Of a DNA stretch of 64,000 bases, positions 3,499-35,833 are shown piece by piece. The notes beneath the pieces were generated by a model. It was not told where the DNA came from, made no database searches, and worked only from the letters and a program-made list of their open reading frames with translations. Numbering within the stretch: position 1 is the stretch's first letter; the number at the start of each line of letters is the position of its first letter. Both the position numbers and the translations under genes were made by a program. Source of the DNA: a phage. The DNA is taken from the NCBI GenBank assembly GCA_020279385.1, contig GCA_020279385.1_4762.2. One strand, 5' to 3'.

Positions 3499-6400
3499 TT
3501 AGTCTTCCCAGATAAAATCTACGGTACGAGTCAAATTATTGGCAATAATTTTAACATTACCAACCTTGATCCAATCACGAACCGTCATAGAGTTCATCAA
3601 ACCACCTTCGGCAACCACTGCCCCGATTTCCTGAGCGGTAGGCTTGTTCTGTTTGGTGTAAATTTCGCCCCATGCGGTCCATTGACCATCTGTACCAGAA
3701 CGGATATAATGCTTATGAGTACCATCAGGCGACCAGATTTGGGTAAGGCCGTTTTCGTCAGTACCCCATTGCATCAATGTACCATTTTTCTTTTCTGGGT
3801 AGGTTTCTTTGATGTTTTGGGTAGTTACTCGCATGTTCCAGAAGCCAATGTTACCAATTGCTGGCGCAGTAGTAGCGATCGCTTCATGCTTAACGGATAC
3901 AATAGACGCATTATCCATAATCAATTTACCAGTCATTGTATCACCAGCATTCTTAACAAACTGACGATTAAGAACTTCGTCTGCGTTTCCTGCGTGGACG
4001 ATCTGATATTTCTGTCCGGCAATCTCTGTAGTAAGCGTCTGATAACCTGCTTTGATGTTAACACTTCCACCGTGACCGATATTCAGCATACCATCTGGGG
4101 AACGAGTCATTGCCGGATTAGACTGGTCAACAATGTATAAACCGCCTTGTTTCGCATACAGGTTACGACCTGCAATAAAGTCTCTATATGCTGTCGCGTC
4201 GCCATTGTGTTCCATAGCAAAGGCGTAATGCTCGACTAATCCACCATCATTGATTTTACCGAAAGCGATAGCATTACTATCAACAACTTGAGATGTTCCA
4301 GTGCCACCAACGATAATAGACCATGAGTTTTCCATACCTTCCGATGCGGTTGCGCCATGCAGAGTAATTCCGGTGTGACCGTCAACTCCACGCTCACCCA
4401 ACACCAGATGACCATTACTCGGATCATCAGTCGAGTTCTTAGTCACAAACAGAGTTTCAAAGGAACCTGATTTTAAGCACTCTAAATCGCCCTTCACGTT
4501 AACGTTTTTATTAAACGTGTAATTGCTCTCAATGGTCTGGTCAATGTCTCTACGCGCCCATTTAGCGGCCTCTACGTCACCCAATTTCAAACTATTCTGA
4601 GCGGTTGCCATCTTAGGTAAGAAATTAGCAAGTGCGTAGTTTAATCCTTTAGGGGTAACAGCAATTCCGTCATGCTGGTAGTTTCCTAGTTCTTGAGTAG
4701 AACCTTGCAGATTGTCACCAACAAAACAGTTTTCCTGAGTAGCAACTTTCAAGAAACCACGACGAGCTTCGGTTGCTTTCCATGTATCCTCTGTCTGAAC
4801 AACATATTTGAAGTTCTTCGGAGAAATTGCTACATTAGCCAGTGTACCAGCCACGGTTTCGGCTTGAGTACCAACTCGGATAATACCTTCTTTACCTTCG
4901 GTGGCCTTTTTGCCTTGCAGCTTTTTAGGAGTAATGATCGTAGCGTCATCTTCTCCTGCGTCTGTAAGCTGAGTAGTTGCAACTTTAGCGACACCTTTTG
5001 TATCTTCGGTTGCATCAAGACCGCTGATCATGATACCCTGCCACAAGTCACCAGTAAGGTTAAGCCCCTGAGTCGGGTCTACTTTCAAACGCTGCGCATT
5101 CTCAAAGAAGGTTTTAATCTTCAATGGGGTAGAAATGCGAGCATCGTCAAGACCTGCGTCAAATTCCGGTTGAGTTGCAATTTCTGCTAAACCATGTAAA
5201 GTTTCCGTTGCGCGGCGAGTATGCAGCTTTTTAGGCGTGATGATATGGTTATCACTTTGACCTAAGTTTGTTTCTTCCTGAGTTGCAATTTCAGCGATAC
5301 CAGTGCGCGATTCGGTAGCAGTACGTTTCGTTAGCGTGCGAGTCGTGATTAGTAAAGCATCTTGCGGGGTTGATTCTGTAGCCCCTTGCACTTCCGCGTC
5401 AGTTGCCAGATAACCAACACCACGGGAAGTTTCGGTCGCCTTGACTTCGTTGATGTTTTGTGGCGTAACAATTTTAACATGGTCGTTGATGTTATAGATC
5501 CCTGTACCAGCTTCACCACGTCTAGCGGCAGCACTACCGCCAGCCTGAACAATTTCAGCAATACCAGCGAGATCTTCGGAAGCGCGACGTTCTTCTAATT
5601 TCTTAGGAGTAATAGCGCGGGTATCGTCTAAACCTTCATTGGTTTCTTGCTGGGTTGCAATTTCCATCACGCCACGACGGGCTTCGGTAGCAACACAATC
5701 ATTTAACTTTTTAGGCGTAACGATAACATCATCCAGGAAGCTGGAACCAGTATCTTGATGCGTTTCCGCTTGAGTTGCAATGCGAGCAATACCGCGTCGA
5801 GTTTCGTTGGCTGTTTTGTTAGCCAGAACCTTTGGAGTCACCGCAACTTCGTCGCTAGGATTATCTTCATGGTTTTTGTTTGTTTCATCCTGGGTAGCCA
5901 GTGCAATTACACCAACACGATCTTTACGAGTCGGATCTACTCGTTCTACAATCGGGTGAGCATGTGCCACCAACCAGTATTTCTTACCATCATCACCTTC
6001 TGAATAAGAGAACTCCAGATAAGGTACATAATCATTTGCAGCGTTGAAAGACAATTCAGACACTCCCGTCCATGTATCGGTCCCATTGAATGGGTACTCG
6101 CTACGCTTAGGAAACTGAACCATGTTTTTCTGAATAAGGATTTTTGTATCCTCTGTGGCGGTGATAATACGGCAATTCTGGTTTCCGTGCATATACTGCA
6201 TAGAAACTTGAATACGATCACCCGGCTCGACATTGGTTGGTAAAGTCAAGGTAACATCACGTTCACCAAATACTGCAACATAGCTATTAGGGGATAAGCG
6301 AGTATCACTAATGATAGGATTCAAGCGAACAGACTGATCACCATCCCACAAACGCCATAAGTTTTCCGGTTTGTCAAATATGAATACACCATGACCGCTA

Positions 6401-28268: not shown

Positions 28269-28737
28269 TAATGAAGGGGCGAAAGCCCCTAAACCTAAAA
28301 AATTGTCAAAGAAAGAGCAACGCCAGATCCTGAAAATGAAATACGGTGGACGTTGTGCCTATTGTGGCGAGGAACTAGGGGATCGCTGGCACGCAGACCA
28401 CATCAAACCAGTATTGCGACGCTCAAAAGTAGTCTATGATGAAAATGGACGAATTGCCCGTAATGATGATGGATCGTGGAAGTATAAGGTTGTAGGAATG
28501 CATAAACCGGAACATGATATACTTGATAACATGAATCCGTCGTGTGTGCAATGCAATCTTTATAAAAGCTGTATGGGCTTAGAATACTGGCGTAAGTGTA
28601 TACGCGAGAACTTCCAGAAATACATTCAGCGCAATATGGGGTTGCGAGCGGCTAAACGCTTTGGCTTACTGTCAATCCACGACCAGCCAGTAGAATTTTA
28701 TTTCGAAAAGTATGAGCGCGAGCATCAAGAAAAATAA
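28261..28737 (+). CDS. HNH endonuclease (small, free-standing)
   Basis: CAYCGEELGDRWHADHIKP...NMNPSCVQCNLYK: HNH His-Me finger with Cys pairs. Confidence 0.75.
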   Translation: MCDNEGAKAPKPKKLSKKEQRQILKMKYGGRCAYCGEELGDRWHADHIKPVLRRSKVVYDENGRIARNDDGSWKYKVVGMHKPEHDILDNMNPSCVQCNLYKSCMGLEYWRKCIRENFQKYIQRNMGLRAAKRFGLLSIHDQPVEFYFEKYEREHQEK

Positions 28738-28750
28738 TTCAAAAAAGTTG

Positions 28751-28779
28751 TTGACAGGGGATCACCGATCCCCTATACT
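28751..28779 (+). promoter_or_regulatory. PeSL-type early promoter
   Basis: TTGACA - GGGGATCACCGATCCCC palindrome as 17-nt spacer - TATACT; then ...CGAAACGA...AGGAGAATCAA leader. Confidence 0.55.
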
Positions 28780-28813
28780 ACACACATACCGAAACGAACT
28801 AGGAGAATCAATT

Positions 28814-29010: not shown

Positions 29011-29313
29011 ATGGCAAAAGTTAAGGTAGGCGAGGTCTTCAAAATGGAAGACCACACCGTGGAAGAGATGAAAGGCGCAGTATTGAAAGTAACTAATTCA
29101 ATGTGTCGTAGTGTGCTTTACATCAACTTTATAGACGGTGATGTGTGGTGGGCTAGCGATAGCGATAAATGGGATATCAAGTTCTACAAAGGTCATACTC
29201 ACTGGTTAGGAACAGAGGATGTTGTAGAAGTTCTGGCGGTTGATGTTATGCCAGGCGAGATCGAAAGTCTTAGCGGAACCGCAAAAGAAGCATTGACACG
29301 CCATTTTGTGTGA
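29011..29313 (+). CDS. HxHW-motif small protein, paralogue 1
   Basis: ...KFYKGHTHWLGTEDVVEVLAVDV... Confidence 0.55.
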   Translation: MAKVKVGEVFKMEDHTVEEMKGAVLKVTNSMCRSVLYINFIDGDVWWASDSDKWDIKFYKGHTHWLGTEDVVEVLAVDVMPGEIESLSGTAKEALTRHFV

Positions 29314-29370: not shown

Positions 29371-29562
29371 ATGTGTGGTCTTAAAATGGTTGCTGAATAT
29401 AAGCGAACTGGTAATATTATTATGTATCGACGCAATGCCAACGAAGACTGGAAACCTTCCAACCGCATTAAATCCATCCAGACGTTTATGAATAACATCA
29501 AAGAAAACCTTTTCGTTAAGCGTGTTGGCGCTGAACATTGGGAAGTTTACGAAGCTGTATAA
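29371..29562 (+). CDS. Hypothetical small protein (63 aa)
   Basis: ORF with AGGATAATATT ATG start context. Confidence 0.35.
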   Translation: MCGLKMVAEYKRTGNIIMYRRNANEDWKPSNRIKSIQTFMNNIKENLFVKRVGAEHWEVYEAV

Positions 29563-29578
29563 TTTTGAGGAAAATATT

Positions 29579-29881
29579 ATGGAACGTACCAATTTGTTTG
29601 TAACCGAACCTTTCGTTGAAGGAAACAAGAACCTTGCTAATACGGTTATTCTTTACGAAGATTGGATCTTTTACATCGATGAGAATTTAGATGTATATTG
29701 TCGTCCAACCCCAAATGACTCATTCTATATCGAAGAAAACGATACCCATAATCATTGGTATGACGGAAACGACGAAACCGATCTTGCTATTGTTCTCGAA
29801 TCCGGCGTAGAATCGGAACATGCCGATGAAGTAGCAGACAAATTTATGAAATACGCATATAAAGATAAAGTTGAAGAATAA
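29579..29881 (+). CDS. HxHW-motif small protein, paralogue 2
   Basis: ...IFYIDENLDVY...NDTHNHWYDGNDETDLAIVLE... Confidence 0.5.
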   Translation: MERTNLFVTEPFVEGNKNLANTVILYEDWIFYIDENLDVYCRPTPNDSFYIEENDTHNHWYDGNDETDLAIVLESGVESEHADEVADKFMKYAYKDKVEE

Positions 29882-29889
29882 AAAAGTTG

Positions 29890-29918
29890 TTGACAGGGGA
29901 TCGGTGATCCCCTATAAT
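29890..29918 (+). promoter_or_regulatory. PeSL-type early promoter
   Basis: TTGACA - GGGGATCGGTGATCCCC - TATAAT. Confidence 0.55.
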
Positions 29919-29951
29919 GCACACATACCAACGAGATATAGGAGAATCAAA

Positions 29952-30119
29952 ATGTTCCAGACTAAAGCAGAATGCGAAGCATACATTGTAGCAAACCACG
30001 GTGAAGACTACCTGAAATTCGATATCGTAGTAGCACAGAAGATCACCGGAATGGTTGCAAAATATCTAGGTGTTAAAGAAGGTTACTATCCAAGCAACGC
30101 ACCAGAAATTAACAAATAA
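29952..30119 (+). CDS. Hypothetical small protein (55 aa), duplicated cassette copy 1
   Basis: MFQTKAECEAYIVANHGEDYLKFDIVVAQKITGMVAKYLGVKEGYYPSNAPEINK; near-identical to 33212..33379. Confidence 0.55.
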   Translation: MFQTKAECEAYIVANHGEDYLKFDIVVAQKITGMVAKYLGVKEGYYPSNAPEINK

Positions 30120-30122
30120 TAG

Positions 30123-30151
30123 TTGACAATGATTAAAGGGAGTAGTAAGAT
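30123..30151 (+). promoter_or_regulatory. PeSL-type early promoter
   Basis: TTGACA - 17 nt - TAAGAT within GGGAGTAGTAAGATACTCCC stem-loop. Confidence 0.45.
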
Positions 30152-30183
30152 ACTCCCATCAAGACAACAAACGGAGAATCAAA

Positions 30184-30363
30184 ATGAAAGCTATCGAAGT
30201 TCAGAAGTACATGGAACTCATCATTGAAGGTAAAGCACATACAGTATTGACTACCAACGTAGGATATGATAAAAATGTGCATATGCTGGTAGACAATATC
30301 GGCTGGATGAAGTTTAATCCTAATGAGAATGTACAAGCTCAAGAAATGACCATCCCTTTCTAA
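30184..30363 (+). CDS. Hypothetical small protein (59 aa)
   Basis: MKAIEVQKYMELIIEGKAHTVL...; ATG after GGAGAATCAAA. Confidence 0.4.
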   Translation: MKAIEVQKYMELIIEGKAHTVLTTNVGYDKNVHMLVDNIGWMKFNPNENVQAQEMTIPF

Positions 30364-30375
30364 GAGGAATATATT

Positions 30376-30654
30376 ATGATGCGAATTACTGCAACGCTGG
30401 ATAAGACACACAAAGAAAGATTTTTCGGTATGATCTTAAAAACGCCGATTTTCGATAATTACCTTTATGTTGACTATGAAGGCCATATTAGCTATAAATG
30501 TAAAAATGATATTCGTGATTCCTTTGGTGATAAATCACAAGCTGATATTCACGATCATTGGTGGACCTTCGACGAACCTTTACGGATTATCGCAGTTGAT
30601 GTAAAAACAATAAAAGAAGCTGATAAGGTAGTTAACGATTATGAGCAAATTTAA
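30376..30654 (+). CDS. HxHW-motif small protein, paralogue 3
   Basis: ...YLYVDYEGHISY...ADIHDHWWTFDEPLRIIAVDV... Confidence 0.55.
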   Translation: MMRITATLDKTHKERFFGMILKTPIFDNYLYVDYEGHISYKCKNDIRDSFGDKSQADIHDHWWTFDEPLRIIAVDVKTIKEADKVVNDYEQI

Positions 30655-30850
30655 AGACTATAAAGCATATCAACAGATCCTGCGAGTATACGCACCAGAG
30701 TTCGCCGAAAAGATGATGGAAGATGCATCAAAATGCCCGTCCTTTTCTGGAAACAAAAACCATTATTCGACTGGTATTGTGTCATGGAAAGAAACCGCAT
30801 ATACTCAACAATGGATAGATGTGTTTTCAAAAACTCTTGAGTGGTGTTAA
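30641..30850 (+). CDS. Hypothetical small protein (69 aa), MSKFKDY paralogue A
   Basis: MSKFKDYKAYQQILRVYAPEFAEKMMEDASKC... Confidence 0.5.
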   Translation: MSKFKDYKAYQQILRVYAPEFAEKMMEDASKCPSFSGNKNHYSTGIVSWKETAYTQQWIDVFSKTLEWC

Positions 30851-30852
30851 TT

Positions 30853-31068
30853 ATGAGCAAATTTAAAGATTATCGAGCATATAAAGCGATCTGCGATATA
30901 TTCGATGAAAAGACCGCTCATGAAATGATGGAAGATGCAGAACAATATGAATCATTCGTCAATTCCAAAGATTGCACAGTAAACGGGATTGTGTGCTGGA
31001 AAGATACAAAGTATGAAGAAAAATGGATTACCGTGTATTACGGAGAACTAGAATATGAAATTAACTAA
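30853..31068 (+). CDS. Hypothetical small protein (71 aa), MSKFKDY paralogue B
   Basis: MSKFKDYRAYKAICDIFDEKTAHEMMEDAEQY...; tandem paralogue of previous ORF. Confidence 0.5.
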   Translation: MSKFKDYRAYKAICDIFDEKTAHEMMEDAEQYESFVNSKDCTVNGIVCWKDTKYEEKWITVYYGELEYEIN

Positions 31069-31375
31069 AAAGATTTTCCCAGAATTGCGTAACTGTCTGT
31101 TATTGGTTACTGAATATAAGCCGTATACGATCTACTTGTATGTTGATGAAAATCTGAAAATCCGTTACTATGATTATACGTCTCCAGTGATGAAATCATT
31201 TGCTCACTCGATAGCAAATAACTGTATGAATCACAATCATTGGGTATCAGAAACGGATGACGATGCGTCAGAAGTTGTAGTGGTTGCATGGAATCTATCA
31301 CCAGCGGAAGCAGATCAAGCACGCATTAAGCATTATGCGAAAAACAATTGGTTTGACCTTATAAGTGAGGACTAA
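31055..31375 (+). CDS. HxHW-motif small protein, paralogue 4
   Basis: ...YLYVDENLKIRYY...NHNHWVSETDDDASEVVVVAWN... Confidence 0.5.
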   Translation: MKLTKKIFPELRNCLLLVTEYKPYTIYLYVDENLKIRYYDYTSPVMKSFAHSIANNCMNHNHWVSETDDDASEVVVVAWNLSPAEADQARIKHYAKNNWFDLISED

Positions 31376-31379
31376 TATT

Positions 31380-31658
31380 ATGTTCAAAGTAGGTGATAAG
31401 TTTATTCTTAGTCGTGATATTCTCCCTAATCTGAAAGGTTGTATCATCAATCCTAGTAAAAATTCATGGTTTTATCTGTTTATCGACGACAAACTGAATG
31501 TACGCGCAGAATATAAAGAAGGTCTTCGTACTGGTCTAGGTTTCTTTCACGATCATGATCATAGCCATTGGTTAAACGGTGGATTCGAAGCAACGGTGCT
31601 AGCGGTTGACGTGACCTACACAAACATCATAGAAAAATATCAAAAAATTATTTTATAA
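31380..31658 (+). CDS. HxHW-motif small protein, paralogue 5
   Basis: ...FYLFIDDKLNVRAEY...HDHSHWLNGGFEATVLAVDV...; ATG after GTGAGGACTAATATT. Confidence 0.55.
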   Translation: MFKVGDKFILSRDILPNLKGCIINPSKNSWFYLFIDDKLNVRAEYKEGLRTGLGFFHDHDHSHWLNGGFEATVLAVDVTYTNIIEKYQKIIL

Positions 31659-31664
31659 AAAGTG

Positions 31665-31693
31665 TTGACACCGGATCGGGGATATAGCATAAT
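31665..31693 (+). promoter_or_regulatory. PeSL-type early promoter
   Basis: TTGACA - 17 nt - CATAAT inside GGGGATATAGCATAATATCCCC stem-loop. Confidence 0.5.
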
Positions 31694-31739
31694 ATCCCCA
31701 TCGAAACGAGATACACTTTCTAACTAGGAGAATCAAATT

Positions 31740-32027
31740 ATGGCATACATTACTATCACTCTGAAAGTTAACAAATTTGCTCACGCTGCACACGAAACAG
31801 ACAATGCAATCCGTAACAACAAGTTCGCACGTCTGGTACGCGATGCAGTAGCTAAAGAGTTCAACTTCAAATTTGCAGACGGTAAAGTTATCACTAAATG
31901 GACTCATGACGGAGAAACTAAAGTAGAACTTGCTGATAACTTCGCAAATCAGGAATATGCACACCGTCGCATTAATGAAATTATCAGCGATGAACTCTAC
32001 TACGGTGTACAGGAAGGACTGTTTTAA
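31740..32027 (+). CDS. Hypothetical protein (95 aa)
   Basis: ATG after AGGAGAATCAAATT. Confidence 0.5.
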   Translation: MAYITITLKVNKFAHAAHETDNAIRNNKFARLVRDAVAKEFNFKFADGKVITKWTHDGETKVELADNFANQEYAHRRINEIISDELYYGVQEGLF

Positions 32028-32030
32028 TAT

Positions 32031-32056
32031 ACGGGGCGTTAAGCCCCACCCCTTTT
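32031..32056 (+). terminator. Stem-loop / terminator
   Basis: GGGGCGTTAAGCCCC hairpin followed by ACCCCTTTTCATCC. Confidence 0.45.
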
Positions 32057-32080
32057 CATCCAACTATTGAGGATAATACT

Positions 32081-32389
32081 ATGAAAGATAATATCTTTGA
32101 ATTTACCCGCGAAAATCTCCCAATGTTCCGAAAGTCTCTGCTTAAACTAGAGAACAGCAATTACAACGTATATTTTTACATCACCGAAGACCTAGAGATC
32201 CTTTACGCAGATTATCCAGGTCCGATCCGTACCTTCGAAGAAGCATCGCAGTATAAAAATGTTCACGGTCATGAGCACTGGTTACGAGAAAACCCAGGTC
32301 GCAAGAAAGCACGCGTTAAAGTGTTGGCGATTGACATAACACCAGCATACGCCGACCGGATTGCACTGAATGATTATTTGTCTAAATGA
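32081..32389 (+). CDS. HxHW-motif small protein, paralogue 6
   Basis: ...YFYITEDLEILYAD...HGHEHWLRENPGRKKARVKVLAIDI... Confidence 0.55.
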   Translation: MKDNIFEFTRENLPMFRKSLLKLENSNYNVYFYITEDLEILYADYPGPIRTFEEASQYKNVHGHEHWLRENPGRKKARVKVLAIDITPAYADRIALNDYLSK

Positions 32390-32395
32390 TTTCAT

Positions 32396-32426
32396 TAGCC
32401 GACCTTAGTGTCGGCTTTTTTATTTC
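32396..32426 (+). terminator. Rho-independent terminator
   Basis: AGCCGACCTTAGTGTCGGCT hairpin followed by TTTTTTATTTCC. Confidence 0.65.
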
Positions 32427-32444
32427 CAAAAATTAAAAAAGTTG

Positions 32445-32473
32445 TTGACACCTGATCACGCCTATAGCACAAT
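32445..32473 (+). promoter_or_regulatory. PeSL-like early promoter (weaker -10)
   Basis: AAAAAAGTTGTTGACA ... CACAAT, then ACACACATCGAAACGAGATACCACTTAGGAGAATCAAACA ATG leader. Confidence 0.4.
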
Positions 32474-32513
32474 ACACACATCGAAACGAGATACCACTTA
32501 GGAGAATCAAACA

Positions 32514-32783
32514 ATGGCACTGACTAAAACCACTACCAACTTTGCAAAACGTCACGGCTTCGACCTTGAAATCAATAGCTTTAACGATTACACCCTTCTG
32601 TGTGTATATGAAATCGAAAATGATTGCGAGTGGATGTTCAGCTATCGCGTAAACGAAGACGGATCTTTCACTTGGAACGGAAATATCTATCTTGCACAGG
32701 AAGTAAAAGAAGAACTTCCGGCGACTATCAAAGATGAGAAACATTTACGTCAAGTTTTAAAATTTATTTCTGAAAATATCTAA
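32514..32783 (+). CDS. Hypothetical protein (89 aa)
   Basis: ATG after conserved leader/RBS. Confidence 0.5.
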   Translation: MALTKTTTNFAKRHGFDLEINSFNDYTLLCVYEIENDCEWMFSYRVNEDGSFTWNGNIYLAQEVKEELPATIKDEKHLRQVLKFISENI

Positions 32784-32791
32784 AAAAGTTG

Positions 32792-32820
32792 TTGACACCA
32801 AAGTAAGAACATAGCATAAT
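32792..32820 (+). promoter_or_regulatory. PeSL-like early promoter
   Basis: AAAAAAGTTGTTGACA - 17 nt - CATAAT, then ACACACATACCGAAACGAACTGGAGAATCAAAA ATG. Confidence 0.5.
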
Positions 32821-32853
32821 ACACACATACCGAAACGAACTGGAGAATCAAAA

Positions 32854-33135
32854 ATGAAATTCATCAAAGCAACCGAAATCCTGAAAAACAAAGAAGCATA
32901 CATCGGAAACATCGTTGGTATGAACATTCGCGGCGCTGGTAGCCAGTGGACCAAACTGGTTGATGTTAAAGCTAAAGGCGATAAAATTGAGTTCACTGTA
33001 AAAATGCTTACTCATAACGCACATATGGGTATCAAGACAAAAACGATGGCCGCAGATAAAAGCATCAACTATCAAGATCTGGGCGATTGGTTGAACTGGT
33101 GCAAAATGCACAACATCGAAACTAATCACGAATAA
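32854..33135 (+). CDS. Hypothetical protein (93 aa)
   Basis: ATG after conserved leader/RBS. Confidence 0.5.
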   Translation: MKFIKATEILKNKEAYIGNIVGMNIRGAGSQWTKLVDVKAKGDKIEFTVKMLTHNAHMGIKTKTMAADKSINYQDLGDWLNWCKMHNIETNHE

Positions 33136-33149
33136 TTTTAAAAAAGTTG

Positions 33150-33178
33150 TTGACGGGGATCGGGAGATCCCCTATAAT
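33150..33178 (+). promoter_or_regulatory. PeSL-type early promoter
   Basis: TTGACG - GGGATCGGGAGATCCC palindrome spacer - TATAAT. Confidence 0.55.
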
Positions 33179-33211
33179 ACACACATAACGAAACGAAATA
33201 GGAGAATCAAA

Positions 33212-33379
33212 ATGTTCGAGACTAAAGCAGCATGTGAAGCATATATCATTGAAACCCACGGCGAAGATTATCTGAAATTTGACATTGTAGTAGCACAGAA
33301 GATTGTAGGGATGGTTGCGAAATACCTCGGAGTTAAAGAAGGTTACTATCCTAGCAACGCACCAGAAATTAACAAATAA
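33212..33379 (+). CDS. Hypothetical small protein (55 aa), duplicated cassette copy 2
   Basis: MFETKAACEAYIIETHGEDYLKFDIVVAQKIVGMVAKYLGVKEGYYPSNAPEINK; ~90% identical to the 29952..30119 product. Confidence 0.55.
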   Translation: MFETKAACEAYIIETHGEDYLKFDIVVAQKIVGMVAKYLGVKEGYYPSNAPEINK

Positions 33380-33393
33380 TTTTATAAAAAGTG

Positions 33394-33422
33394 TTGACAG
33401 GGGAGGATAACTCCCCTACAAT
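33394..33422 (+). promoter_or_regulatory. PeSL-type early promoter
   Basis: TTGACA - GGGGAGGATAACTCCCC spacer - TACAAT. Confidence 0.5.
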
Positions 33423-33462
33423 ACAACCATCAAGACGAGATACCACTTAGGAGAATCAAACA

Positions 33463-33714
33463 ATGGCTAACATCGAAACCGCAAAGAAAATCGCTAAAGA
33501 CCTGAACGTTAAAGGCTTCCGTAAACTGAAATTACAGCGTGTACGCTACACCATCGGCAAACAGTGCTCTTTCATGAGCGAAGAAGTTGCTAACAGCCTC
33601 ATTGATAACCTGATTGCGGCTGGCTGGGAAGTTGCGGATCTGAAAACTTGCCGCGAACTGGCTAACAAAGGTCTTTTAGATTCTGTTACTATCAAACCAA
33701 TGGGGGCAGCGTGA
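33463..33714 (+). CDS. Hypothetical protein (83 aa), first gene of coupled operon
   Basis: MANIETAKKIAKDL...; ATG after TAGGAGAATCAAACA. Confidence 0.5.
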   Translation: MANIETAKKIAKDLNVKGFRKLKLQRVRYTIGKQCSFMSEEVANSLIDNLIAAGWEVADLKTCRELANKGLLDSVTIKPMGAA

Positions 33715-33956
33715 AAAGAAAATTAATTAAACGCAATAAGGAATTTCTTAATAACTGCATTAAGGCCGCTAATGGTTGGCCTTTGTTCCTCTTCCTTTAT
33801 GATTGGTATTCTAAACAATCGGTAGAGGAAACACGACACTATAAGAAGATCAGAAAAGAATCATATACAAAACAAGGCCGCATTAACGGACTTTACTTAA
33901 TGTGGCACGGCAAAGAACCTTCTAAAATCTGTGTTGGATTAAAGGGGCGTATATGA
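33711..33956 (+). CDS. Hypothetical protein (81 aa)
   Basis: GTG start overlapping upstream stop (GTGA); basic N-terminus, hydrophobic WPLFLFLYDWY segment. Confidence 0.4.
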   Translation: MKRKLIKRNKEFLNNCIKAANGWPLFLFLYDWYSKQSVEETRHYKKIRKESYTKQGRINGLYLMWHGKEPSKICVGLKGRI

Positions 33957-34669
33957 AACAAAAATTAATATTCTGCAACTTTGACGGATCGGGGATAATG
34001 GGGCTAGAATGGGCTAAAGCAGGTCATAAGGTGATCTGCTTTAATGCTGACGATGGCGACCACGGCACATACAAAAAGTATAATACCCGATTTGAACATC
34101 CAAACATTACCTATGTAAACACATGGATTGATTTGAACTGGCTGGAAAGAGCAATGGACCTTGAATGGGGGAAACCGGATATTATCTTTGCATTCCCACC
34201 GTGCACCAATTTAGCTGTTAGTGGCGCTGCACACTTTGAACGAAAGAAACGAGAACAAGGACCATTGATTCAAGTTCATGATGTAAGGGCAGCTAAAATA
34301 ACCGCTTATTTGGGTGAATGGCTAGGAGTTCCCTACATGATAGAGAATCCTGTAAGCGTTATCTCTAGCATGTGGCGTAAGCCTGATTATATGTTCCATC
34401 CGTGGGAATATGGTGGTTATTTGCCGGAAGATGATAAGCATCCTACGTTTCCTGAGTATATTGCCGCCCGTGATATGTACCCGAAAAAGACTTGCTTATG
34501 GACCGGACAAGGCTTTATGATGCCAGAAAAGAAACCTTTGCAGATTAATAAAGGGTACAGTAAACAGCATTCTAAGCTAGGCGGGAAAGGAACGAAAACA
34601 AAGACTATAAGGTCACTTACCCCGCGAGGATTCGCAAAGGCAGTATTTGAAGCCAATAAGGATCTATGA
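33953..34669 (+). CDS. Cytosine-C5 methyltransferase-like protein (divergent, no obvious target-recognition domain)
   Basis: FCNFDGSGIMG (motif I-like), FAFPPCTNLAVSGA (motif IV-like Pro-Cys), YMIENPVSV (motif VI ENV-like); 238 aa; ATGA overlap with neighbours. Confidence 0.5.
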   Translation: MKQKLIFCNFDGSGIMGLEWAKAGHKVICFNADDGDHGTYKKYNTRFEHPNITYVNTWIDLNWLERAMDLEWGKPDIIFAFPPCTNLAVSGAAHFERKKREQGPLIQVHDVRAAKITAYLGEWLGVPYMIENPVSVISSMWRKPDYMFHPWEYGGYLPEDDKHPTFPEYIAARDMYPKKTCLWTGQGFMMPEKKPLQINKGYSKQHSKLGGKGTKTKTIRSLTPRGFAKAVFEANKDL

Positions 34670-35518: not shown

Positions 35519-35525
35519 AAAGTTG

Positions 35526-35554
35526 TTGACAGGGGATCGGTGATCCCCTATAAT
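35526..35554 (+). promoter_or_regulatory. PeSL-type early promoter
   Basis: TTGACA - GGGGATCGGTGATCCCC - TATAAT; same spacer as 29890..29918. Confidence 0.55.
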
Positions 35555-35590
35555 GCACACATACCGAAACGAACTACTAAGGAGTATCAA

Positions 35591-35808: not shown

Positions 35809-35833
35809 AGGGGGCGTTAAGCCCCGTTTTCAT
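35809..35833 (+). terminator. Stem-loop / terminator
   Basis: GGGGCGTTAAGCCCC hairpin followed by GTTTTCAT. Confidence 0.5.

Follow-up and report, generated by a model that had tools for sequence, protein, structure and literature searches.

Two copies of a 55-codon early gene cassette in an RB49-like phage genome: probably an old, still recombining paralogous pair

How does a phage genome come to carry the same small gene twice, each time behind its own promoter, and how old is such a pair? The question is raised by contig GCA_020279385.1_4762.2 of NCBI GenBank assembly GCA_020279385.1, a stretch of phage DNA of 64,000 nucleotides (nt) that is referred to here in its entirety as the window. 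A first-pass annotation had reported that a promoter and open reading frame (ORF) at 29881-30119 recur at 33141-33379, and had read this as a recent cassette duplication or transposition. The recurrence and its position are correct: a repeat search identified a direct repeat of 242 nt (29879-30120 versus 33139-33380, 3260 nt apart, 84% identity, gap-free), each unit of which contains a promoter, a 5' untranslated region (5'UTR) and a 55-codon ORF. We think it probable that the two copies, termed A and B, are an old paralogous pair of promoter-early stem-loop (PeSL) gene cassettes in the hyperplastic region between ligase and Alt, orthologous to ORF205 and ORF191 of phage RB49 and still recombining. 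The observations behind this explanation are the anatomy of the cassettes, homology confined to one PeSL and one ORF, purifying selection, conservation across species and the existence of natural recombinants.

Positions 29500-33800 of the window share 93-96% identity with 59 phage records, every one of them from an RB49-like T4-type coliphage of the genus Krischvirus (ECD7, ELT4, JEP8, KFS-EC, RB49, phi1 and JSE among them), and the window itself is a Krischvirus. The RB49 annotation maps copy A to RB49p205 (ORF205) and copy B to RB49p191 (ORF191), and both copies lie within the hyperplastic region, a run of about 30 small hypothetical ORFs extending from the DNA ligase gene gp30 to Alt. PeSLs were defined in RB49 and phi1, where about 50 are present per genome; they fall into five subclasses according to the position of the stem-loop, have strong promoter activity, and recombine with one another to give small circles (Arbiol et al., 2010; PMC2839356). 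In that study the cloned PeSL206/205, orthologous to the promoter of copy A, yielded approximately 13,000 Miller units, and a sequenced RB49 mini-circle, ‘H’, was found to carry ORFs 191-194; it therefore includes copy B. The features that make up the two cassettes are as follows.

29879-29951, + strand: PeSL of copy A (orthologue of RB49/phi1 PeSL206/205), 12/12 consensus promoter; ORF206 stop 29879-29881, A-rich tract, -35 TTGACA 29890-29895, spacer GGGGATCGGTGATCCCC 29896-29912, -10 TATAAT 29913-29918, 5'UTR, Shine-Dalgarno sequence (SD) AGGAG 29940-29944
29952-30119, + strand: copy A coding sequence, 55 amino acids (aa), orthologue of RB49 ORF205 (RB49p205)
30120-30183, + strand: PeSL 205/204, downstream bound of cassette A; TTGACA-17-TAAGAT, hairpin GGGAGTAGTAAGATACTCCC overlapping the -10
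33136-33211, + strand: PeSL of copy B (193/191), 11/12 consensus promoter; A/T tract, -35 TTGACG 33150-33155, palindrome GGGGATCGGGAGATCCCC 33155-33172, -10 TATAAT 33173-33178, SD AGGAG 33200-33204
33212-33379, + strand: copy B coding sequence, 55 aa, orthologue of RB49 ORF191
33380-33462, + strand: PeSL 191/190, downstream bound of cassette B; TTGACA-GGGGAGGATAACTCCCC-TACAAT, partner in the precise B-cassette indel described below

Both locus and elements are those of the PeSLs described from the T4-type phages RB49 and phi1 (PMC2839356; Comeau et al., 2014, PMC4122927). Like the published elements, A and B each have an A-rich tract, a sigma-70 promoter of consensus type whose -35 and -10 hexamers enclose a GGGG...CCCC stem-loop, and then an SD and the ATG of an ORFan, and both are in the hyperplastic region. 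The promoters read TTGACA-GGGGATCGGTGATCCCC-TATAAT (A) and TTGACG-GGGATCGGGAGATCCCC-TATAAT (B), a GC-rich palindrome occupying the 17-nt spacer in each; the AAAAAAG tracts begin at or just past the upstream stop codon, and AGGAG stands 7 nt 5' of the ATG in both copies. The PeSL of copy A matches that of RB49 letter for letter over the stretch from GTTGTTGAC to the SD. The same layout recurs in each intergenic spacer of the region (A-rich tract, (G)TTGTTGACA, 17-nt GC-rich palindromic spacer, TATAAT, a leader of about 33 nt, AGGAG and ATG), and the pattern TTGAC-N-TANAAT was observed 22 times in the window against an expectation of 1.8.

How much of the repeat is specific to the pair? The palindromic spacer type that the first-pass annotation had remarked on is indeed shared by the two promoters, but it is a property of a PeSL subfamily and not of the pair, as two further PeSLs are equally similar.

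28737-28813, + strand: same-subfamily PeSL (28751) before an unrelated gene; spacer GGGGATCACCGATCCCC, the reverse complement of the A spacer
35519-35590, + strand: same-subfamily PeSL (35526) before an unrelated gene; repeats A's promoter core

When the PeSLs at 28751, 29890 (A), 33150 (B) and 35526 were aligned on the -35 hexamer, the four were mutually 71-82% identical (A versus B, 79%; A versus 28751, 79%; B versus 28751, 82%), and the promoter of A proved to be letter-for-letter that of the 35526 PeSL from the -35 hexamer (29890) to about 15 nt beyond the -10. The promoter part of the repeat is not evidence for duplication; its pair-specific part is the segment from SD to ATG together with the coding sequence. 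The limits of homology were defined by a MAFFT alignment of both copies with 100-nt flanks, in which the homologous stretch opens in the A-rich tract, just 3' of the stop codon of the preceding gene, and closes 1-2 nt past the TAA of the ORF. On the upstream side the coding sequences that flank A and B are unrelated and, downstream, each copy meets a different PeSL. Identity is not limited to the promoter, as pairwise alignment shows homologous coding sequence: A and B differ at 25/168 nt and, in line with the earlier estimate of about six, at exactly 6/55 residues (Q3E, E7A, V13I, A14E, N15T and T32V). The proteins are 89% identical (BLASTP, E = 5e-36), and the coding match of 140/165 nt is so far above the background at all other offsets in the window (43 +/- 5.8, maximum 73) that chance is excluded.

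The age of the pair was approached through synonymous divergence (dS; Nei-Gojobori counting with Jukes-Cantor correction). Between A and B there are 18 synonymous differences at 33.7 sites (pS 0.53) and seven non-synonymous differences at 131.3 sites, giving a non-synonymous divergence (dN) of 0.055, a dN/dS of 0.06 and a dS of approximately 0.94, the last imprecise because there are only about 34 synonymous sites. Both copies are thus under strong purifying selection, and both are kept across species. When both copies were extracted from RB49, phi1, JSE and ECD7, and single copies from five further phages, orthologues from the four named phages were found to differ from the window copies at 0-4/168 nt with 0-2 amino acid changes, and the sites diagnostic for A and B were all fixed across these phages and the window. 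Such small differences between orthologues, together with the fixed diagnostic sites, place the origin of the second copy before the divergence of the sampled Krischvirus species; on sequence grounds the duplication, or the acquisition of a second copy, would be older than their split. The synonymous differences are unevenly distributed, affecting 15/32 degenerate codons in codons 1-40 versus 1/15 in codons 41-55 (Fisher p = 0.008, with the split picked post hoc), a pattern compatible with an older conversion tract.

If the pair is old, other phages should tell us what has become of it. A tblastn search with copy A returned 71 phage records, six GenBank/RefSeq duplicates included, of which 59 are Krischvirus; the protein of copy A is 100% identical in 45 phage records. 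Two copies are present in 52/59 Krischvirus records and one in 7/59, with no record (0/59 in each case) having zero or three. Either copy, then, may be missing from a natural isolate, but no record is without both, which fits partial redundancy; of the causes that the first-pass annotation suggested for the retention of two copies, dosage selection and the start of subfunctionalisation, either may apply. Six of the seven single-copy records were inspected, the exception being MIZ5, which is close to MIZ4 in length and has its match at the same coordinates. In Cognac and FL04 a single 55-aa gene is all that lies between ORF206 and ORF190, so that a 3.26-kb interval holding their ORF204-193 genes is gone. 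The absent segment of 3,260 nt corresponds to the coding sequence of A plus the following block of the window.

30184-33135, + strand: twelve small early ORFs between the copies, orthologues of RB49 ORF204-193 without ORF192, 195, 196 and 196.1

The single gene of Cognac has the promoter and leader of A and the coding sequence of B, the crossover lying within the common ATAGGAGAATCAAAATGTTC. In FL04 the junction is inside the palindrome, between TTGACAGGGGATC and GGGAGATCCCC, and the flank on its upstream side belongs to the other allelic type; because of both features FL04 is an independent event, and the two phages represent two independent deletions by recombination of A with B. In Brandy, JK32 and UPWr_E1 the B cassette is exactly absent and ORF193 is followed by ORF190, the PeSL between them being a chimera with the 5' part of 193/191 and the 3' part of 191/190 (junction between ACACACAT and CAAGACGAG); this state is a precise single-cassette indel of B. 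In MIZ4, B is absent along with ORF190 to approximately ORF187. Chimeric PeSLs, the expected product of recombination between one PeSL and another, are found in Brandy, JK32, UPWr_E1, Cognac and FL04, and border the indels as in the published cases; the crossover sites, between -10 and ATG or inside the stem-loop, belong to the classes published for sequenced mini-circles. Finally, the A copy of Brandy carries all six B-type synonymous variants at nt 51-75 even though Brandy is without a B copy, and this stretch is a gene-conversion patch. With 84% identity and exact shared patches of 14-22 nt, the copies still recombine.

Our current working explanation can be set out as follows. Each copy would act as a self-contained immediate-early unit composed of an A-rich tract, a consensus sigma-70 promoter, a 5'UTR, a strong SD and the 55-codon ORF, whose stop abuts the next PeSL. 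In RNA reading through from upstream, the spacer palindrome is expected to form a hairpin that attenuates transcription, a role that we extend by analogy to the PeSLs of A and B; the predicted free energies of the hairpins as RNA are -12.8 kcal/mol for GGGGATCGGTGATCCCC of A and -13.9 kcal/mol for GGGGATCGGGAGATCCCC of B. The second copy probably arose long ago by homologous recombination between PeSLs: a PeSL mini-circle may have been excised and then reinserted, two copies of the genome may have exchanged unequally, or a diverged allele may have been captured from a different phage. Since then, both copies have been held by purifying selection that acts on the protein. Exchange between the PeSLs and 5' ends of A and B deletes the 3.26-kb interval, exchange between one PeSL and another removes or inserts the B cassette exactly, and short conversion tracts move between the copies. 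All three outcomes (interval deletion, exact B-cassette indel and conversion tracts) are documented among the phages compared above.

Several points weigh against this explanation or parts of it, in addition to the small number of synonymous sites. The founding event is beyond reconstruction and its three routes are indistinguishable, because the flanks have been overwritten by later PeSL exchange. That the genomes without B are losses and did not simply never receive it is suggested by parsimony and the Brandy patch, and the near-identical 3' third of the genes could reflect nucleotide-level constraint instead of conversion. The A and B hairpins have no T-run on their 3' side and received no call in an intrinsic-terminator scan, and terminator activity has been demonstrated for PeSL211/210 only, which is a different PeSL (PMC2839356), so that the attenuator role proposed for A and B is taken from the literature on another element. 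As to function, the proteins gave no sequence match in Pfam, NCBIfam or the Protein Data Bank (PDB). An AlphaFold2 model built from a 5-sequence alignment has helices at residues 5-16 and 18-39 and a disordered tail, with low confidence (pLDDT, the predicted local distance difference test score, of 66), and Foldseek comparison of this model with the PDB gave nothing credible, all hits having E > 5.

The alternative that best withstands these data is that the copies are xenologues, one of them, probably A, having been taken from a diverged phage through PeSL recombination, so that their divergence is older than the arrival; we regard it as unlikely. The import of foreign cassettes via PeSLs is the published model (PMC2839356; PMC4122927), and the divergence of A from B is far above any seen among Krischvirus orthologues. 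Moreover, the family extends to unrelated swi2-like siphoviruses (swi2, Salmonella phages D10, Pu29 and SeSz-2, and Bas81), and in two siphovirus contigs the homologue has a PeSL-like leader, TTGTTGACG ... AACGAAACGAAAT, resembling the 5'UTR of B. Every outgroup resembles B more closely than A, with identities of 72-74% versus 68% for swi2 and 83% versus 78% for a metagenomic homologue (P0003, on contig L012), and B thus looks like the older, less derived copy; the L012 homologue also lies directly 3' of an ORF194 homologue, nearly the place of B in the window. Set against this, no A-type donor lineage was found. The family is very small: a search of 5.8 billion proteins found five clusters, two of them truncated or fused artefacts, and the credible matches in an exhaustive HMMER scan of 1.84 billion representatives were the cluster of the family itself and two relatives of 53 and 63 aa, the relatives gained (P0006 and P0007) being the only credible ones outside Krischvirus. 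Later conversion would, in addition, have to be invoked for the near-identity of the 3'-terminal 48 nt and for the identical C-terminal tail.

A further possibility, which we put forward as a speculation with perhaps little chance of being right, is that the ORF205/ORF191 pair is the natural footprint of a step so far lacking from the PeSL model, the reintegration of an excised mini-circle at another PeSL, the GGGGATC-N3/4-GATCCCC palindrome being a structure- or sequence-specific exchange site and not a passive stretch of homology. Pointers in this direction are the FL04 crossover inside the palindrome, the occurrence of the loop in both orientations among orthologous PeSLs and the PeSL-like leader in the two siphovirus contigs. 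If this were true, PeSL arrays would constitute an integrase-less, integron-like system that moves early genes between phage families. As part of the same speculation, A and B might have come to differ in the targets they recognize, five of the six substitutions between them falling in the predicted N-terminal helix.

The proposal with which we started, a recent intragenomic duplication or transposition whose copies are just starting to diverge, now seems very improbable. It draws on the alike promoters and the 89% identity of the proteins, but about half of the synonymous sites differ, paralogues are separated by 25 nt where orthologues differ by 0-4, and the same diagnostic differences mark both copies in four species recognized by the International Committee on Taxonomy of Viruses, with both copies present in 52/59 records. 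The word ‘recent’ is thus not supported, given a dS near 0.94 and diagnostic differences that are fixed in the window as well as in RB49, phi1, JSE and ECD7. Nor is strict transposition indicated, as there is no transposase, target-site duplication or terminal repeat and the junctions consist of PeSL homology, indicating homologous recombination between PeSLs; what stands of the claim is that a promoter-gene cassette, a discrete movable module, is truly duplicated in the accessory region. A transposon or homing element was likewise rejected, the 242-nt unit encoding the 55-aa protein and no enzyme gene, its ends being PeSL boundaries, and no unit-specific flanking direct or inverted repeats being found. 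That the similarity is a repeated promoter family with coincidental or low-complexity likeness of the ORFs, or an assembly artefact, can practically be dismissed, for although the promoters of A and B are no more alike than other PeSLs, the coding match lies far outside the background, the BLASTP score is strong, and both genes have been found in over 50 genomes that were sequenced independently.

Returning to the old paralogous pair as the preferred explanation, what does the protein do? Both proteins match PHROG 8009, which carries a function-less label, over their full length (E = 1e-38 and 7e-38); long repetitive proteins that appeared in the HMMER scan (E = 4e-5 to 4e-4) were regarded as spurious, and Rfam at the gathering threshold gave no match in the window. 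The C-terminal tail, GYYPSNAPEINK, is invariant. Judging by its conservation and the context of its expression, we suggest, with low confidence, an immediate-early protein that is non-essential per copy and probably host-directed. At least one copy is kept in 59/59 genomes, which makes this 55-aa ORFan a reasonable candidate for an early host-directed factor.

In swi2 the homologue adjoins terL on the strand opposite to its neighbours and has its own promoter, with a hairpin and then a T-run downstream. As a small accessory gene with its own promoter, occurring in unrelated phages, the cassette resembles phage morons, and the swi2 gene is moron-like. Classical morons belong to temperate phages and are expressed from the prophage. 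The present cassette, in contrast, belongs to a virulent phage, in which it forms one immediate-early unit within a tandem array of dozens. On L012 (Logan SRR5584643 contig; 3723-4165, 4158-5633) the homologue overlaps, through ATGA, the stop of the ORF194 homologue, which is 41% identical to window 32514-32783, and it adjoins genes with PHP and 2-hydroxyacid-dehydrogenase domains. These neighbours presumably resemble E. coli ycdX and ghrA, and the arrangement could represent a prophage end or an assembly chimera.

The PeSL system, the locus and even this promoter have already been described, and in this sense the finding is largely ordinary. The paralogy of ORF205 and ORF191 is unmentioned in the two PeSL papers (PMC2839356; PMC4122927), and a literature search found no further description of it. 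To the known framework the present comparison makes small additions, namely the deletions by A with B recombination, the A/B conversion patch and the leader similarity across phage families. The pair is an instance of a PeSL-bounded gene occurring twice in one array, an outcome predicted by the reintegration step of the PeSL model. Its members also serve as internal recombination substrates through which a 12-gene block has been deleted repeatedly (Cognac, FL04), a single cassette apparently removed and short conversion tracts exchanged, and this explains a recurrent 3.3-kb polymorphism to those engineering or comparing therapeutic Krischvirus phages. There is a likeness to integron gene cassettes in the single-gene modules, small circles, repeated and partly palindromic site, array of unrelated small ORFs and occasional duplicates. 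In contrast to integrons, there is no integrase and no attC or attI, each cassette has its own promoter, and exchange is apparently by general homologous recombination over 14-40 nt of identity; we offer the comparison as an analogy and not as membership.

Some further observations concern the PeSLs themselves. The hairpin spacer exists in two mirror forms, GGGGATCGGTGATCCCC (29896-29912) and its reverse complement GGGGATCACCGATCCCC (28757-28773), and the form differs between orthologous PeSLs of close relatives, as seen in phi1 (L009), MIZ4 (L003), JK32 (L007) and JSE (L010). The A PeSL of phi1 equals the 28751 PeSL of the window from the spacer through the -10 (TATACT) and looks swapped in, so that swapping is a simpler account than flipping of the loop in situ; JK32, in which a flipped loop occurs together with A's own -10, is a poor fit. 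The octamer CGAAACGA has nine + strand occurrences in the window (18955, 20641, 20922, 28790, 31702, 32482, 32831, 33189 and 35565) against about one expected, and 6/6 sites within 28-36 kb fall in PeSL leaders between -10 and SD. It is also present in the leader of the siphovirus homologue of the 55-aa gene (L015 2273; L016 3978). It may represent a leader element that has been conserved, or else the remnant of a transfer of whole cassettes from one phage family to another. Each GGGGATC...GATCCCC spacer (hairpins 28757, 29896, 33155 and 35532) holds two GATC sites, and an ORF for a DNA methyltransferase (33953-34669) lies 0.6 kb 3' of copy B. Regulation of the palindrome through Dam sites (GATC) is not claimed, GATC being frequent window-wide (363 versus about 258 expected) and promoter-like sites showing an approximately two-fold excess only (13 versus about 6).

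Others concern the surrounding array. The ORF order in the window is of the phi1 type, ORF193 being followed by ORF191 without ORF192 between them. The slot directly 5' of copy B (between 33135 and 33212) is variable among phages: no ORF occupies it in the window, phi1 or ECD7, RB49 has ORF192 there (477 nt; L001 8775-9251) and JSE an ORF of different size (312 nt; L010 8600-8911). On an IMG/VR Krischvirus contig (IMGVR_UViG_3300045988_033703, 6428-6773) a deletion runs from inside ORF199 to inside ORF190, taking out ORF198 through copy B; its ends are not at PeSLs, and either a genuine fusion or an error of assembly could account for it. Five small ORFs of the window (29011-29313, 30376-30654, 31055-31375, 31380-31658 and 32081-32389), situated between and around the two copies of the 55-aa gene, form a diverged paralogue family with a Y.Y.DE...H.HW...AVDV-like pattern (BLASTP E 2e-13 to 2e-3); ORF206 (29579-29881) resembles them by eye but has no BLASTP match. 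Old tandem amplification is therefore common here and not special to the 55-aa gene. The ORFs at 30641-30850 and 30853-31068, orthologues of RB49 ORF202 and ORF201, are likewise neighbouring tandem paralogues (46% identical, E = 1e-19), and no PeSL separates them. Canonical terminators, with a hairpin and T-run, are present in the window at 32397-32416 (AGCCGACCTTAGTGTCGGCT-TTTTTATTTC, 3' of ORF197) and 35811-35825 (bidirectional, GGGGCGTTAAGCCCC), and some cassettes of the array therefore carry classical terminators besides the PeSL hairpins.

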